Source: a virus
Lineage: Duplodnaviria > Heunggongvirae > Uroviricota > Caudoviricetes
Length of the DNA: 5,496 nt
Strand: one strand, 5' to 3'
Virus record (IMG/VR): IMGVR_UViG_2698536476_000006
Below are positions 1 through 5,496 of the stretch, one piece after another. The notes beneath the pieces are model-generated. The model was not told where the DNA came from. It did not search any database and saw only the letters and a program-made list of their open reading frames with translations. The translations under genes and the position numbers were made by a program. The number at the start of each line of letters is the position of its first letter. Position 1 is the first letter of the stretch.

Positions 1-117
1 GATGGAAATGGTCAGGAAGGATGGCCTCCAATGGATGGTAGTGAAGGAATAAGAATTACCGATATCGATACATCAGGAATATTTGATTCAGATGATATGA
101 CTATCAAGGCCGCCTGA
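1..117 (+). CDS. 3' end of upstream early-left gene (lambda ea10-like); 5' end lies outside the window
   Basis: Frame 1 is open from the window edge to TGA at 115-117 and translates to ...DGNGQEGWPPMDGSEGIRITDIDTSGIFDSDDMTIKAA*. It sits immediately upstream of cIII, where lambda has ea10. The identification rests on position and recollection only. Confidence 0.45.
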   Translation, partial: DGNGQEGWPPMDGSEGIRITDIDTSGIFDSDDMTIKAA

Positions 118-177
118 GCGCGGCGTTACCGCATACCAATTACGCTTCACTCGAGGCGTTTTTCGTTATGTATAAAT

Positions 178-183
178 AAGGAG
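178..183 (+). promoter_or_regulatory. Shine-Dalgarno sequence of cIII
   Basis: AAGGAG lies 6 nt upstream of the cIII ATG at 190. Confidence 0.7.
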
Positions 184-189
184 CACACC

Positions 190-354
190 ATGCAATATGC
201 CATTGCAGGGTGGCCTGTTGCTGGCTGCCCTTCCGAATCTTTACTTGAACGAATCACCCGTAAATTACGTGACGGATGGAAACGCCTTATCGACATACTT
301 AATCAGCCAGGAGTCCCAAAAAATGGATCAAACAATTATGGCTATCCAGACTAA
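190..354 (+). CDS. cIII: CIII, protease (FtsH/HflB) inhibitor that stabilises CII; 54 aa
   Basis: ATG at 190 follows a strong Shine-Dalgarno AAGGAG (178-183) with 6-nt spacing. Translation [53 protein letters not shown] matches my recollection of lambda CIII. It is below the ORF-track size cutoff and in a different frame from the 197..466 track ORF. Confidence 0.92.
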   Translation: MQYAIAGWPVAGCPSESLLERITRKLRDGWKRLIDILNQPGVPKNGSNNYGYPD

Positions 355-466
355 ATTCACTATCGCCACTTTTATTGGCGATGAAAAGATGTTTCGTGAG
401 GCCGTCGACGCTTATAAAAAATGGATATTAATACTGAAACTGAGATCAAGCAAAAGCATTCACTAA
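323..466 (+). CDS. kil: Kil, host-killing / FtsZ-ring inhibitor; 47 aa
   Basis: The C-terminal 47 codons of track ORF 197..466 ([47 protein letters not shown]) start at ATG 323, preceded by AGGAG. It overlaps the 3' end of cIII out of frame and the 5' end of gam. Matches lambda Kil from memory. Confidence 0.85.
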
Positions 467-837
467 CCCCCTTTCCTGTTTTCCTAATCAGCCCGGCATT
501 TCGCGGGCGATATTTTCACAGCTATTTCAGGAGTTCGGCCATGAACGCTTATTACATTCAGGATCGTCTTGAGGCTCAGAGCTGGGCGCGTCACTACCAG
601 CAGATAGCCCGTGAAGAGAAAGAGGCAGAACTGGCAGACGACATGGAAAAAGGCCTGCCCCAGCACCTGTTTGAATCGCTATGCATCGGTCATTTGCAAC
701 GCCACGGGGCCAGCAAAAAAGCCATTACCCGTGCGTTTGATGACGATGTTGAGTTTCAGGAGCGCATGGCAGAACACATCCGGTACATGGTTGAAACCAT
801 TGCTCACCATCAGGTTGATATTGATTCAGAGGTATAA
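421..837 (+). CDS. gam: Gam, RecBCD nuclease inhibitor (138-aa annotated form; internal start at 541 gives the 98-aa form)
   Basis: The track ORF translation ([18 protein letters not shown]...[10 protein letters not shown]) matches lambda Gam. The ATG at 421 has no obvious SD, whereas the in-frame ATG at 541 ([13 protein letters not shown]...) is preceded by AGGAG (529-533), so the short form is probably the main translation product. Confidence 0.95.
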
Positions 838-842
838 AACGG

Positions 843-1628
843 ATGAGTACAGCACTCGCAACGCTGGCAGGGAAGCTGGCTGAACGTGTCGGCATGGATT
901 CTGTCGACCCACAGGAACTGATCACCACTCTTCGCCAGACGGCATTTAAAGGCGATGCCAGCGATGCGCAGTTCATCGCATTGTTGATCGTCGCCAACCA
1001 GTACGGCCTTAATCCGTGGACGAAAGAAATTTACGCCTTCCCTGATAAGCAGAACGGCATCGTTCCGGTGGTGGGCGTTGATGGCTGGTCCCGCATCATC
1101 AATGAAAACCAGCAGTTTGATGGCATGGACTTTGAGCAGGACAATGAATCCTGTACATGCCGGATTTACCGCAAGGACCGTAATCATCCGATCTGCGTTA
1201 CCGAATGGATGGATGAATGCCGCCGCGAACCATTCAAAACCCGCGAAGGCAGAGAAATCACGGGGCCGTGGCAGTCGCATCCTAAACGGATGTTACGGCA
1301 TAAAGCTATGATTCAGTGTGCCCGTCTGGCCTTCGGATTTGCTGGTATCTATGACAAGGATGAAGCCGAGCGCATTGTCGAAAATACTGCATACACTGCA
1401 GAACGCCAGCCGGAACGCGACATCACTCCGGTTAACGATGAAACCATGCAGGAGATTAACACTCTGCTAATCGCCCTGGATAAAACATGGGATGACGACT
1501 TATTGCCGCTCTGTTCCCAGATATTTCGCCGCGACATTCGCGCATCGTCAGAACTGACACAGGCCGAAGCAGTGAAAGCTCTTGGATTCCTGAAACAGAA
1601 AGCCACTGAGCAGAAGGTGGCAGCATGA
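843..1628 (+). CDS. bet: Bet (Red-beta), single-strand annealing protein; 261 aa
   Basis: Track ORF translation [66 protein letters not shown]... matches lambda Bet. It starts 5 nt after the gam stop and its stop overlaps the exo start (ATGA at 1625-1628). Confidence 0.97.
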
Positions 1629-2305
1629 CACCGGACATTATCCTGCAGCGTACCGGGATCGACGTGAGAGCTGTCGAACAGGGGGATGATGCGTGGCACA
1701 AATTACGGCTCGGCGTCATCACAGCTTCAGAAGTTCATAACGTAATAGCAAAACCCCGCTCCGGAAAAAAGTGGCCTGACATGAAAATGTCCTACTTCCA
1801 CACCCTGCTTGCTGAGGTTTGCACCGGTGTGGCTCCGGAAGTTAACGCTAAAGCGCTGGCCTGGGGAAAACAGTACGAGAACGACGCCAGAGCCCTGTTT
1901 GAGTTCACTTCCGGCGTGAATGTTACTGAATCACCGATCATCTATCGCGACGAAAGTATGCGTACCGCCTGCTCTCCAGATGGTTTATGCAGTGACGGCA
2001 ACGGCCTTGAACTGAAATGCCCGTTTACCTCCCGGGATTTCATGAAGTTCCGGCTCGGTGGTTTCGAGGCCATAAAGTCAGCTTACATGGCCCAGGTGCA
2101 GTACAGCATGTGGGTGACGCGAAAAGATGCCTGGTACTTTGCCAACTATGACCCGCGTATGAAGCGTGAAGGACTGCATTATGTCGTGGTTGAGCGGGAT
2201 GAAAAGTACATGGCGGGTTTTGACGAGATGGTGCCGGAGTTCATCGAAAAAATGGACGAGGCACTGGCTGAAATTGGTTTTGTATTTGGGGAGCAATGGC
2301 GATGA
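1625..2305 (+). CDS. exo: Exo (Red-alpha), 5'-3' dsDNA exonuclease; 226 aa
   Basis: Track ORF translation [73 protein letters not shown]... matches lambda exonuclease. Translationally coupled to bet. Confidence 0.97.
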
Positions 2306-2484
2306 AGCATCCTCACGATAATATCCGGGTAGGTGCGATCACTTTCGTCTACTCCGTTACAAAGCGAGGCTGGGTATTTCCCGACCTTTCTGTTATCCAA
2401 AATCCACTGAAAGCCCAGCGGCTGGCTGAGGAGATAAATAATAAACGAGGGGCTGTATGCACAAAGCATCTCCTGTTGAGTTAA
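2302..2484 (+). CDS. Small early-left protein, lambda orf60a-like; 60 aa (alternative start at 2296 gives 62 aa)
   Basis: ATG at 2302 overlaps the exo stop (ATGA). Translation [60 protein letters not shown]. Position and size match lambda orf60a. Confidence 0.7.
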
Positions 2485-2648
2485 GAACGAGCATTGAGAT
2501 GGCACATAGCCTTGCTCAAATTGGAGTCAGGTTTGTGCCAATACCAGTAGAAACAGACGAAGAATTTCATACGTTAGCCACATCCCTTTCACAAAAGCTG
2601 GAAATGATGGTGGCGAAAGCAGAAGCAGATGAGAGAGACCAGGTATGA
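2457..2648 (+). CDS. Small early-left protein, lambda orf63-like; 63 aa
   Basis: Track [66 protein letters not shown]. It overlaps the 3' end of the previous gene by 28 nt, as lambda orf63 overlaps orf60a. Confidence 0.7.
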   Translation: MHKASPVELRTSIEMAHSLAQIGVRFVPIPVETDEEFHTLATSLSQKLEMMVAKAEADERDQV

Positions 2649-2658
2649 CAACCACTGA

Positions 2659-2940
2659 ATGCATTTTTCTGGCAGCGGGCTTCATATTCTGTGTGCTTAT
2701 GCTTGCCGACATGGGGCTTGTTCAGTGACACCTCAGCAAGAAAACGCCCTTCGCAGCATTGCCCGTCAGGCTAATTCTGAAATCAAAAAAGCCAGACAGC
2801 AGTTTCCGGATAAAAACGTCGATGACATTTGCCGTAGCGTACTGAAGAAGCACCGCGAAACGGTAACGCTGATGGGATTCACACCGACTCATTTAAGCCT
2901 GGCGATCGGCATGTTAAACGGCGTCTTTAAGGAACGGTGA
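2659..2940 (+). CDS. Hypothetical protein; start uncertain (ATG 2659 gives 93 aa; GTG 2725 gives 71 aa)
   Basis: Track ORF ...TPQQENALRSIARQANSEIKKARQQFPDKNVDDICRSVLKKHRETVTLMGFTPTHLSLAIGMLNGVFKER. No convincing SD before 2659; a weak GGGG lies about 9 nt before the GTG at 2725. A competing 27-aa hydrophobic ORF (2645..2728) overlaps its 5' part in another frame. I could not match it to a lambda gene. Confidence 0.4.
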   Translation: MHFSGSGLHILCAYACRHGACSVTPQQENALRSIARQANSEIKKARQQFPDKNVDDICRSVLKKHRETVTLMGFTPTHLSLAIGMLNGVFKER

Positions 2941-3038
2941 GCATGAAAAGCAAAATCATCAGGGAGCTACAGGCTCCTTTTTTATTGTTCGCATTCACCC
3001 TCAAGCGTATTAACCAACAATTCAGGGATTAATGGAAG

Positions 3039-3260
3039 ATGGCAGACATCATTGATTCAGCATCAGAAATTGAAGAATTACAGCGCAACACAGCAATAAA
3101 AATGCGCCGCCTGAACCACCAGGCTATATCTGCCACTCATTGTTGTGAGTGTGGCGATCCCATAGATGAGCGAAGACGCCTGGCCGTTCAGGGTTGTCGG
3201 ACTTGTGCAAGTTGCCAGGAGGATCTGGAACTTATCAGTAAACAGAGAGGTTCGAAGTGA
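3039..3260 (+). CDS. TraR/DksA-family C4-type zinc-finger protein; 73 aa
   Basis: Translation MADIIDSASEIEELQRNTAIKMRRLNHQAISATHCCECGDPIDERRRLAVQGCRTCASCQEDLELISKQRGSK contains CxxC-(14 residues)-CxxC. Size and layout resemble F-plasmid TraR (73 aa), which has the same type of C4 motif with a slightly longer spacer. Confidence 0.75.
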   Translation: MADIIDSASEIEELQRNTAIKMRRLNHQAISATHCCECGDPIDERRRLAVQGCRTCASCQEDLELISKQRGSK

Positions 3261-3412
3261 GCGAAATTAACTAGAAGCCAAAGATAAAATCATCGCTGAG
3301 CAGGAGAAAATCGCTAACGGAGAAAAGACAGTAAGTCAGTATATGAAAACCGCATGATATCATCAGATAAAAATCGATCGTAAAGCGAAATATTAATACC
3401 AGAATAAACGAG

Positions 3413-3436
3413 TCGAGGTAAATTATATTACCTCGA
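3413..3436 (-). terminator. Candidate hairpin terminator downstream of the minus-strand membrane-protein gene
   Basis: Perfect inverted repeat TCGAGGTA (3413-3420) / TACCTCGA (3429-3436) around an AT loop. On the minus strand it is followed by CTCGTTTATT, a weak U tract. It lies 35 nt beyond the stop codon of the 3471..4073 gene. Confidence 0.35.
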
Positions 3437-3470
3437 TAAATTAACTAAAACTTGCCCGCTATATACTATC

Positions 3471-4073
3471 TCATTCAGTATCATCACGCGCGGTCTGTGC
3501 ATATGTTACTACCGCACCTAATGTATTAATTTTCTTTTCAACATAGATAATATTATCGTACTCATAATTGCCATACGGATAGCAAATGCGAATATTCTCA
3601 TGTAGATCGGGGTCATCCACCTCAGCTCCAGAACAACTTTTTGAACTACCGGAAGTATACCGATACGGTGCAACATAAGACGATGTCTCTCCAGGCAAAA
3701 AATAAGTTAGTGTTGTAAGGGGTATAATCAGAAAAAATCCAGCAAATATGCACATCCCTGCATAAACCTTAAGGTATGCTGACAGACTCTTCCAGCCGCT
3801 TTGTTTTACTATCCCCTTCTTAACCCAAAACAGAGATAACAGAAAAGCTATTCCCATGCTAAACAGAATGTAATAGTGGGATATACTCTGATTAAGAAAC
3901 GTGACCCTGTAAATATCTGCCCGCCACCAGAAGAAAAGGAAAATAAAGATCAGGCCTGAAACTGTCATGCAAATCAAATAAGGATACGAATCTTTTTTCA
4001 TGTTTAGCGTCCATAAAATTTTTCCTGCCCCGGACAAATTTACCATCCATTTTTTGCGCAGAAAATAGCTCAT
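3471..4073 (-). CDS. Hypothetical integral membrane protein (about 3 predicted TM helices plus a roughly 70-aa Cys-containing C-terminal domain); moron-like cargo gene, start codon uncertain
   Basis: The only long minus-strand ORF not shadowing a recognised gene. Hydrophobic stretches YLICMTVSGLIFIFLFFWW, HYYILFSMGIAFLLSLFWV and MCIFAGFFLIIPLTTLTYFL, followed by a polar C-terminus ...SKSCSGAEVDDPDLHENIRICYPYGNYEYDNIIYVEKKINTLGAVVTYAQTARDDTE. Candidate starts are ATG at 4073, 4046 or 4001 (MKKDSYPYL...); none has a strong SD. The gene is visibly AT-rich relative to the flanking recombination genes and antisense to the operon. Confidence 0.6.
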   Translation of the reverse strand: MSYFLRKKWMVNLSGAGKILWTLNMKKDSYPYLICMTVSGLIFIFLFFWWRADIYRVTFLNQSISHYYILFSMGIAFLLSLFWVKKGIVKQSGWKSLSAYLKVYAGMCIFAGFFLIIPLTTLTYFLPGETSSYVAPYRYTSGSSKSCSGAEVDDPDLHENIRICYPYGNYEYDNIIYVEKKINTLGAVVTYAQTARDDTE

Positions 4074-4245
4074 TACTTACTGCACAATAATACACAAAAT
4101 TGCGTAAATTTTTTGCATGGATTTTAGCTCTTTCAGCCGACGTTTAAGGGGTAAATAGCATTTCCTAAAAGCAACTGCACCAACCCAACAGAATGAGCTA
4201 CCGCTTACGTTGAGAGCAAAAAAGTGTATAGCAGCAATGAACAGC

Positions 4246-4272
4246 ATCCTCGCACTGACGAGGATTTCTTTT
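4246..4272 (+). terminator. Intrinsic (rho-independent) terminator-like hairpin
   Basis: ATCCTCG (4246-4252), loop CACTGA, CGAGGAT (4259-4265) form a perfect 7-bp stem, followed by TTCTTTT (4266-4272). Confidence 0.5.
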
Positions 4273-4315
4273 ATCTGAACTCGCTACGGCGGGTTTTGTT
4301 TTATGGAGATGATAA

Positions 4316-4483
4316 ATGCACTTCCGAGTCACAGGTGAATGGAATGGAGAACCATTCAACAGAGTTATCGAAGCAGAGAACATCAATGACTGCTATGACC
4401 ACTGGATGATATGGGCGCAGATAGCACATGCAGACATAACCAATATTCGAATTGAAGAACTGAAAGAACACCAAGCCGCCTGA
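4316..4483 (+). CDS. Hypothetical small protein, 55 aa, immediately upstream of xis
   Basis: ATG at 4316 is preceded by GGAG (4304-4307). Translation MHFRVTGEWNGEPFNRVIEAENINDCYDHWMIWAQIAHADITNIREELKEHQAA-like (55 codons). The TGA stop (4481-4483) sits in the loop of the downstream terminator hairpin. Below the ORF-track cutoff; the overlapping 61-aa track ORF 4224..4409 in another frame has no SD and is less plausible. Confidence 0.45.
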   Translation: MHFRVTGEWNGEPFNRVIEAENINDCYDHWMIWAQIAHADITNIRIEELKEHQAA

Positions 4484-4498
4484 TGGCGGCTTTTTCTT
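4473..4498 (+). terminator. Intrinsic terminator between the 55-aa ORF and xis
   Basis: GCCGCC (4475-4480), loop TGAT, GGCGGC (4485-4490), then TTTTT (4491-4495); flanking A/T could extend the stem to 8 bp. Classic GC-rich stem plus U tract. Confidence 0.6.
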
Positions 4499-4522
4499 GC
4501 GTGTAATTGCGGAGACTTTGCG

Positions 4523-4741
4523 ATGTACTTGACACTTCAGGAGTGGAACGCACGCCAGCGACGCCCAAGAAGCCTTGAAACAGTTCGTCGATGGGTGCGC
4601 GAATGCAGGATATTCCCTCCTCCGGTTAAGGATGGAAGAGAGTATCTGTTCCACGAATCAGCGGTAAAGGTTGACTTAAATCGACCAGTAACAGGTAGCC
4701 TTTTGAAGAGGATCAGAAATGGGAAGAAGGCGAAGTCATGA
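4523..4741 (+). CDS. xis: Xis, excisionase (recombination directionality factor); 72 aa
   Basis: Track ORF MYLTLQEWNARQRRPRSLETVRRWVRECRIFPPPVKDGREYLFHESAVKVDLNRPVTGSLLKRIRNGKKAKS matches lambda Xis. GGAG (4511-4514) lies 8 nt upstream. The 3' end overlaps the int start by 23 nt. Confidence 0.95.
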   Translation: MYLTLQEWNARQRRPRSLETVRRWVRECRIFPPPVKDGREYLFHESAVKVDLNRPVTGSLLKRIRNGKKAKS

Positions 4742-5337
4742 GCGCCGGGATTTACCCCCTAACCTTTATATAAGAAACAATGGATATTACTGCTACAGGG
4801 ACCCAAGGACGGGTAAAGAGTTTGGTTTAGGCCGAGACAGGAGGATAGCAATCACTGAAGCAATACAGGCCAATATTGAGTTATTTTCAGGACACAAACA
4901 CAAGCCTCTGACAGCGAGAATCAACAGTGATAATTCTGTTACGTTACATTCATGGCTTGATCGCTACGAAAAAATCCTCGCCAGCAGAGGAATCAAGCAG
5001 AAGACACTCATAAATTACATGAGCAAAATTAAAGCAATAAGGAGGGGGCTGCCTGATGCTCCACTTGAAGACATCACCACAAAAGAAATTGCGGCAATGC
5101 TCAATGGATACATAGACGAGGGCAAGGCGGCGTCAGCCAAGTTAATCAGATCAACACTGAGCGATGCATTCCGAGAGGCAATAGCTGAAGGCCATATAAC
5201 AACAAACCCGGTCGCTGCCACTCGCGCAGCAAAATCAGAGGTAAGGAGATCAAGACTTACGGCTGACGAATACCTGAAAATTTATCAAGCAGCAGAATCA
5301 TCACCATGTTGGCTCAGACTTGCAATGGAACTGGCTG
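4719..5337 (+). pseudogene. int: Integrase (lambda Int, tyrosine recombinase) interrupted at codon 207 by an IS insertion; only the N-terminal arm-binding and core-binding portion is contiguous
   Basis: From ATG 4719 the translation MGRRRSHERRDLPPNLYIRNNGYYCYRDPRTGKEFGLGRDRRIAITEAIQANIELFSGHKHKPLTARINSDNSVTLHSWLDRYEKILASRGIKQKTLINYMSKIKAIRRGLPDAPLEDITTKEIAAMLNGYIDEGKAASAKLIRSTLSDAFREAIAEGHITTN.VAATRAAKSEVRRSRLTADEYLKIYQAAESSPCWLRLAMELA matches lambda Int residues 1-206. From about 5338 the sequence becomes the IS terminal repeat, and the expected VTGQR(212)VGDL is absent. Confidence 0.9.
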
Positions 5338-5496
5338 TGAACCGCCCCGGGTTTCCTGGAGAGTGTTTTATCTGTGAACTCAGGCTGCCAGATCATCGTT
5401 TCCGATGGAAGCATAATAAGCTTTTTCTGCTTCTGCCGGGGGAGTATGGCCCAGCCTTTCCAGCAATCGTCGATTGTTATACCAGTCCACCCACGT
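5338..5496 (-). mobile_element. Terminal 159 bp of an IS3-family insertion sequence (IS629/IS1203-like), transposase on the minus strand; element continues beyond the window
   Basis: The sequence starts with TGAACCGCCCCGGG, which I recall as the IS629-type terminal inverted repeat. The reverse complement encodes the C-terminus of an IS3-family OrfB transposase. The boundary is ambiguous by 1-2 bp because of shared bases with int. Confidence 0.85.
5380..5496 (-). CDS. 3' end (last 38 codons) of IS3-family transposase OrfB; 5' part outside the window
   Basis: The reverse complement of 5380..5496 reads TWVDWYNNRRLLERLGHTPPAEAEKAYYASIGNDDLAA*, a typical C-terminal tail of IS3/IS629-group DDE transposases, with the stop codon 41 nt inside the IS end. 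Confidence 0.8.
   Translation of the reverse strand, partial: TWVDWYNNRRLLERLGHTPPAEAEKAYYASIGNDDLAA

Follow-up and report, generated by a model that had tools for sequence, protein, structure and literature searches.

A phage 434-type cassette in place of ea22 and ea8.5 in the early-left accessory region of a lambdoid prophage

Between exo and xis, lambdoid phages carry an accessory region of which the part from exo to orf73 has been described as a conserved block (PMC8614690, PMC4195576). Lambda Orf61, which is encoded in this block, has been described as truncated relative to its counterparts in phages Phi24B and 933W, and residues 24-93 of the 93-aa Orf61 of Shiga-toxin phages have been modelled as a three-helix, homeodomain-like fold (PMC8614690). 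Phage 434 was sequenced long ago, and in lambdoid phages the modules that follow orf73 are exchanged as a rule. Phage "morons" are accessory genes that were inserted between genes of the phage and are transcribed on their own. Here we describe a stretch of 5,496 bases (IMG/VR record IMGVR_UViG_2698536476_000006; the whole stretch is called the window below), which comes from a lambdoid prophage of the 434 type and covers its early-left (pL) arm, starting in the last part of ea10, passing through cIII and reaching int, and we consider in particular the cassette found where lambda has ea22 and ea8.5, the antisense membrane-protein gene on that cassette, and the nearby orf61 locus.

Comparison of the window with lambda (NC_001416, locus L001) by blastn gave two blocks, of which 1-3272 was 97.7% identical and contained one gap of a single base and 4246-5338 was 97.4% identical, so that the genes from cIII to orf73 and the segment from a hairpin through orf55 and xis to int were collinear with lambda at about 98%, and the segment 3273-4245 was left unaligned (Table 1). 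The exchange is confined to 3273-4245 and does not reach from about 2629 to xis, as an initial annotation of this DNA had proposed. The observation behind that annotation was confirmed in part and its interpretation supported in part: a non-lambda segment is indeed present between exo and xis, in keeping with typical lambdoid mosaicism, but its extent and placement had been misjudged. Resemblance to lambda had been said to end just after orf63, within a breakpoint interval of 2629-3300; the left junction at 3272/3273 falls inside the far end of this interval and not at orf63, the alignment is unbroken and collinear with orf61 to orf73 through 2629-3272, and mismatches number 1-8 per 200 nucleotides (nt) over all of 1-3272, a flat profile without a step at 2629-2648. 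Nor does lambda-like sequence wait until xis to resume, for it returns at 4246, 277 nt before the xis ATG. The open reading frames (ORFs) listed downstream of orf63 do exist, but most of those that had been left unmatched to lambda have lambda counterparts, the ORF of 71-93 amino acids (aa) being orf61, the TraR-like gene orf73 and the 55-aa ORF orf55. The suspected exchange of ea22 and ea8.5 was correct as far as these two genes go, and no other lambda genes are replaced. We consider it highly probable that the window is a 434-type pL accessory region with a single non-homologous module replacement relative to lambda, and that the stop found in orf61 is a point difference. Among cultured phages, the best match to the window was phage 434 (99.1%), followed by 2B8 and mEp332, with lambda covering 79% of the window; a 100% match was found in prophages of Shiga-toxin (Stx) E. 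coli.

At the left junction, the window and lambda are common up to GAAGTGAGCGAAATTAACT and divergent after it. This point lies 16 nt into ea22, the common GTG at 3257 being the ea22 start codon and overlapping the orf73 stop, and no ea22-family gene was found directly after orf73 in the window, where the frame holds five codons and then TAG. At the right junction (4245/4246), lambda homology is back at ATCCTCGCAC, exactly where a hairpin with a trailing T run begins. The counterpart of the cassette in lambda is ea22 plus ea8.5 (L001 3574-4597; 1,024 bp). The GC content is 0.35-0.39 within the cassette versus 0.45-0.50 in the flanks, and the two traits typical of morons, homology ending abruptly at gene boundaries and a shift in base composition, are both seen. 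From orf73 to the tL4 hairpin, all 973 bp of the cassette match phage 434 (OL657226, OL657227) without a difference, and among 50,697 phage records the cassette was found in 434 (100%), 2B8 (99.9%) and mEp332 (98.7%) and in no others. The left 85 nt of the cassette, with a frame from 3274 (EAKDKIIAEQEKIANGEKTVSQYMKTA), were considered as the tail of a deleted ea22-like gene, a suggestion that found no support, as tblastn of this frame against 83 loci and all phage records matched the same cassette alone.

With respect to origin, an ancestral ea22-type gene would have been broken 16 nt after its GTG start, and all that followed, as far as the base before the hairpin at 4246, would have been replaced by the 973-bp AT-rich cassette, which would have brought a gene for a membrane protein of about 176 aa on the opposite strand together with a putative terminator of its own. 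Because the window keeps a dead-end stub consisting of the first 16 nt of ea22, we infer that an ea22-type ancestor lost this gene when the cassette entered. The conserved Orf61 protein would start further down than the lambda orf61 ATG, at 2725 (or 2659), and is intact in the window.

The distribution of the cassette was examined in 80 IMG/VR loci that contain orf73 at an identity of at least 97%. The 434-type cassette was contiguous in 23 of these loci, and it was also present in 906 of 5,426 complete E. coli genomes (17%). The other 57 loci lost homology to the window at 3270-3273 and read on through an ORF of the ea22 family whose start is the same as that of the window or nearly so; this holds for the first 16 nt of ea22 in these loci and in lambda. 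Their downstream modules had at least 10 different lengths, the shortest being 1,024 bp and the longest exceeding 2,985 bp. Homology to the window was regained in 41 loci, at exactly 4246 in 20 of them and otherwise at 4269 (8 loci), 4437 (8), 4235 (3), 4262 (1) and 4220 (1). The recurrent loss of homology at 3270-3273 together with the varied modules indicates that the slot after orf73 is a hot exchange point for which the ea22 start serves as the shared left boundary. An E. coli hit beside a YqaJ pseudogene (L091) was considered as a second, independent context of the cassette and was rejected, as it reflects a secondary deletion in a 434-type remnant, corresponding to window 2075-3278 and removing orf60a to orf73. 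This prophage remnant (L091 2045-3512) lies beside torI/dsdC, with exo fused to window position 3279 and the membrane-protein gene kept.

The codon-10 stop had been taken as a sign of a junction in the orf61 locus. As first described, the lambda orf61 frame begins at ATG 2629 with a 20-nt overlap of orf63 and stops after nine codons; the cause, however, is a single substitution (G to T at 2656) that gives TGA in the window versus GGA in lambda. The stretch is covered by 69 IMG/VR loci representing 42 haplotypes, one locus not being scored for the A run discussed below, and most of the haplotypes have TGA at codon 10. The lambda ATG itself is replaced by ACG in 933W, VT1-Sakai and 1H12. Downstream of this stop lies the orf61 core, which matched phrog_303 (E 4.7e-36) with residues 1-71 on profile positions 23-93, and its first 24 residues also matched phrog_26061, a small lambda-orf61 family. 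The 71-aa form is the one annotated by the Prokaryotic Genome Annotation Pipeline (PGAP) and by the 434 annotators, and the 93-aa form is annotated in 933W (L0070), VT1-Sakai (H0064) and 1H12 as "similar to lambda ORF61", at exactly the same coordinates as window 2659-2940. In lambda, one extra A in a run of six shifts the frame and ends orf61 at 61 aa, and we therefore regard lambda orf61 as the defective allele. Seven A residues were read in lambda and in one other locus (L075) alone among the 69, six being read in all others but one; alignment length suggests that HK630, O276 and D2 share the extra A of lambda.

Between orf63 and the orf61 core runs a 27-aa hydrophobic ORF in another frame, whose stop overlaps the start codon of the 71-aa core, be it GTG or ATG. 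In lambda (27/27 residues), 933W, VT1-Sakai and mEp332, this ORF is uninterrupted and encodes the same protein, and the differences between 933W and the window inside it are all synonymous in its own frame and all amino-acid-changing in the orf61 frame. When variable sites were pooled, 10 were synonymous and 6 non-synonymous in the 27-aa frame, versus 5 and 11 in the orf61 frame (binomial P = 0.0016 and 0.37, respectively, against an expectation of 25% synonymous). The 27-aa ORF was unlisted in all five annotations examined and had no Pfam or PADLOC match. From these substitution patterns and overlaps, it is probably the conserved coding frame of its stretch, translationally coupled to orf63 and to the orf61 core, and it may encode a small membrane protein that has been overlooked in lambda. 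In the 93-aa form of orf61, residues 1-22 overlap it and may be untranslated. Because the lambda ATG is not conserved, TGA is the majority state and the 27-aa frame is conserved, the stop at 2656-2658 lies in a frame that is probably untranslated.

A separate pattern emerged in the comparison with phage 434, in which all 36 mismatches over 1-4435 fell within one patch (clustering P ~1e-19) with its right edge near 2757-2800. Judged from the alignment, this patch is a homologous allelic replacement over exo, orf60a, orf63 and the start of orf61, and not an end of the resemblance to lambda.

The protein encoded by the antisense gene of the cassette has homologues at 42-78% identity in Salmonella, Klebsiella, Enterobacter and Cedecea. 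The likely product is the 176-aa protein, since the alignment of homologues begins at Met25 of the longer open frame, and PGAP likewise calls the 176-aa form in L091. An AlphaFold2 model (predicted local distance difference test score, pLDDT, 86; predicted template modelling score, pTM, 0.70) contained three helices, all of them long, and a C-terminal beta domain of five strands, in which two cysteines are invariant among the sequences. No Pfam family was found for this protein, nor any PADLOC-DB v2 defence family at E up to 0.1. P2-like prophages of Salmonella have a homologue of 70% identity, whose gene lies between those for the portal and for the replication protein gpA (L085-L087 5001-5531), in one case adjoining a YafO toxin gene; this slot we take to be the variable tin/old defence hotspot of P2-like phages. 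In Enterobacter, a 42% homologue has a fixed chromosomal context between genes for a LysR regulator and a GGDEF protein (L088-L090 5001-5510). A 56-aa minus-strand ORF (4077-4247) upstream of the membrane-protein gene is a "putative membrane protein" in the 434 annotation and had no Pfam or PADLOC match; its frame covers the region of the putative promoter, and it is perhaps not a real gene.

These features suggest an independently acquired accessory gene that would have its role at the cell envelope, where it might serve in exclusion or defence. Exclusion or defence comes into consideration because the family is uncharacterised, the gene replaces the pro-lysogenic ea22, it occurs in 17% of E. 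coli genomes, and a homologue sits in the P2 slot. The more specific proposal that the protein is a previously unrecognised superinfection-exclusion or anti-phage defence factor of prophages, perhaps switched on by CII through the consensus match at 4084-4097, is one we offer tentatively and consider rather doubtful. The window contains three CII-consensus matches versus 1.44 expected by chance, one of them being the genuine pI site at 4497-4510, so the candidate site is weak evidence.

Several alternative explanations of the exchange were considered. If the mosaic junction lay just after orf63 (about 2629-2648), with everything up to xis foreign to lambda, the stop after nine codons in the lambda orf61 frame would be accounted for, and junctions at the edge of orf63 do occur in a few other phages, in which homology is lost at 2459 and regained at 2645 (L009), lost at 2447 and regained at 2743 (five loci), or lost at 2459 and regained at 2905 (five loci). 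For the window, however, such a junction is refuted by the lambda alignment, which passes through 2629-3272 at about 98% with nothing but point changes and the one 1-base indel, and by the near identity of orf73 and orf55 to the lambda proteins, and we find it scarcely credible. The codon-10 stop might instead inactivate a functional orf61 that starts at the lambda ATG, leaving the window with a pseudogene. In about 10 of the 69 loci GGA does stand for TGA, and the frame opened by that ATG is then 103 aa long, and lambda orf61 has been treated as an expressed gene in published work (PMC6213356), but the prevalence of TGA and the ACG of 933W, VT1-Sakai and 1H12 speak against this, as do the changes over 2648-2724 (11 of 16 non-synonymous in the orf61 frame, 10 of 16 synonymous in the 27-aa frame) and a 71-aa core that, with its own ATG or GTG, is intact in all scored loci except lambda and one other. 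A pseudogene in the window is accordingly very unlikely.

The direction of the exchange could also be reversed, the 434-type cassette being ancestral and modules of the ea22/ea8.5 type having been inserted later in lambda and its relatives. The frequency of the cassette among complete E. coli genomes would fit such a history, but a five-codon dead end made of the initial 16 nt of ea22 persists in the window, the 57 loci with varied modules share a full ea22-family gene, and the base composition of the cassette is foreign, all of which makes an ancestral cassette very unlikely. Entry of the cassette into an ea22-type gene, which we prefer, has to be set against several points of its own. Its direction would be read from the 16-nt ea22 stub and from nothing else. 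A scan upstream of the antisense gene gave no convincing sigma-70 promoter match, and the candidate CII site at 4084-4097 is indistinguishable from chance, so that independent expression of the gene stays putative. In addition, ea22 has been counted in the conserved exo-xis block, and of the members so defined, orf60a, orf63, orf61 and orf73 are found in this order in the window and ea22 is not (PMC8614690); the 434 type departs from the published block here, without conflict with the alignment.

Table 1. Features of the 5,496-base window, with coordinates counted from its first base.
Feature	Position	Strand	Description
ea10 (end)			first in window gene order
cIII			follows ea10
kil			follows cIII
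gam	421-837
bet	843-1628
exo	1625-2305
Allelic patch versus phage 434	1693-2757		36 mismatches in 1,065 bp; 0 mismatches in 1-1692 and 2758-4435
orf60a	2296-2484
orf63 (DUF1382)	2457-2648	+	63 aa; Pfam PF07131, E 7.7e-31; 59/63 residues as in lambda Orf63
Start of lambda "orf61" frame	2629-2658	+	ATG AGA GAG ACC AGG TAT GAC AAC CAC TGA; stop 2656-2658
27-aa hydrophobic ORF	2645-2727	+	MTTTECIFLAAGFIFCVLMLADMGLVQ; ATG overlaps orf63 stop (ATGA); stop overlaps GTG of orf61 core
orf61 core	2725-2940	+	71 aa from GTG 2725; 93 aa from ATG 2659; untruncated form of Stx phages
A6 run	2785-2790	+	A7 in lambda (L001 3085-3091); sole gap in lambda alignment of 1-3272
31-aa ORF	2937-3032	+	GTG 2937 (29 aa from ATG 2943); 29/31 residues as in lambda ORF at same place
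Terminator-like hairpin and T run	2961-2979	+	between orf61 and orf73 (scan)
orf73, TraR/DksA-type C4 zinc finger	3039-3260	+	73 aa; 72/73 residues as in lambda orf73
ea22 remnant	3257-3274	+	GTG AGC GAA ATT AAC then TAG; first 16 nt of ea22 (3257-3272) kept
Replaced module (434-type cassette)	3273-4245		973 bp, GC 0.35-0.39; in place of lambda ea22 and ea8.5; without lambda alignment
Terminator-like hairpin	3413-3436	-	just 3' of antisense gene; 9-bp stem, T-rich tail (scan)
Antisense membrane-protein gene	3471-4001	-	176 aa from ATG 4001; open frame to ATG 4073 (200 aa)
TTGT-N6-TTGT, CII-consensus match	4084-4097	-	upstream of membrane-protein gene; annotated as CII site in OL657226 from consensus alone
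Terminator hairpin	4246-4265	+	annotated as tL4 in phage 434 record M60848
orf55 (lambdap35, NP_597778)	4316-4483	+	55 aa; 54/55 residues as in lambda; phrog_676, E 1.7e-39
xis	4523-4741		ATG 4523
int	from 4719

Among the remaining lambda genes of the window, orf73 matched Pfam PF01258 (zf-dskA_traR) at 35.8 bits (cut-off 24.9; E 7.7e-9) and phrog_54 (E 2e-25). The hallmarks of TraR/DksA proteins are an N-terminal DxxDxA motif and four zinc-binding cysteines (PMC8614690), and orf73 shows the acidic motif D3-I-I-D6-S-A8 together with the cysteine pairs C-E-C and C-A-S-C in HCCECGD...CRTCASC. A 31-aa gene named orf2313 has been reported from ribosome profiling in the lambda exo-xis block (PMC8614690), and by its size and position the 31-aa ORF of the window is probably the same gene; its 29-aa form had no Pfam or PADLOC match. 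The terminator-like hairpin between orf61 and orf73 stands where a predicted terminator, t2, has been described for lambda and Phi24B (PMC4195576). A search of Rfam found the cIII thermoregulator (Lambda_thermo; 177-235, plus strand, 88.5 bits) at the start of cIII as the sole match in the window, and nothing within 2629-3300. An element of the IS3 insertion sequence family cuts int at 5338 and occupies window 5339-5496; it is IS629-like according to the annotation of matching records, and in related prophages a copy sits between kil and gam instead (L003).

The arrangement described here is already known from phage 434 and is an instance of ordinary lambdoid mosaicism. The results nevertheless bear on how related sequences are annotated. 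The annotated orf61 of lambda, with an unconserved start and a frameshifted 3' end, is a poor reference that makes intact genes look broken. Published phenotypes of orf61 deletions are concerned as well, since such deletions would also remove the 27-aa ORF. Finally, ea22 is not universal in the exo-xis block that has been called conserved, a widespread membrane protein taking its place in the 434 type.

Compared with the exo-xis stretch of phage 434 (OL657226, OL657227; partial M60848), the window has the same gene order, an identical cassette and 99.1% identity over 1-4495. It differs in that 434 has, between orf55 and xis, an ORF114-bearing insert of about 420 bp (L002 4796-5215), which is found neither in the window nor in lambda, and in that int is interrupted by the IS3-family element in the window. 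The site of the ORF114 insert in 434 corresponds to a bidirectional terminator-like hairpin at 4473-4492, just upstream of the pI CII site. With lambda (NC_001416), the window shares orf60a, orf63, the orf61 locus, the 31-aa ORF, orf73, orf55, xis and int in collinear order at about 97.5%, the differences being the replacement of ea22 and ea8.5, an intact orf61 (A6 versus A7) and the TGA at codon 10 of the lambda orf61 frame. The 93-aa orf61 genes of the Stx phages (L0070 of 933W, H0064 of VT1-Sakai and vb_24B_7c of Phi24B) agree in coordinates and length with window 2659-2940, without substantive difference. Compared with morons, the cassette differs in that no convincing promoter was identified but resembles them in its lower GC content, its orientation opposite to the operon, its putative terminator, its site at a gene boundary and its gene for a membrane protein.

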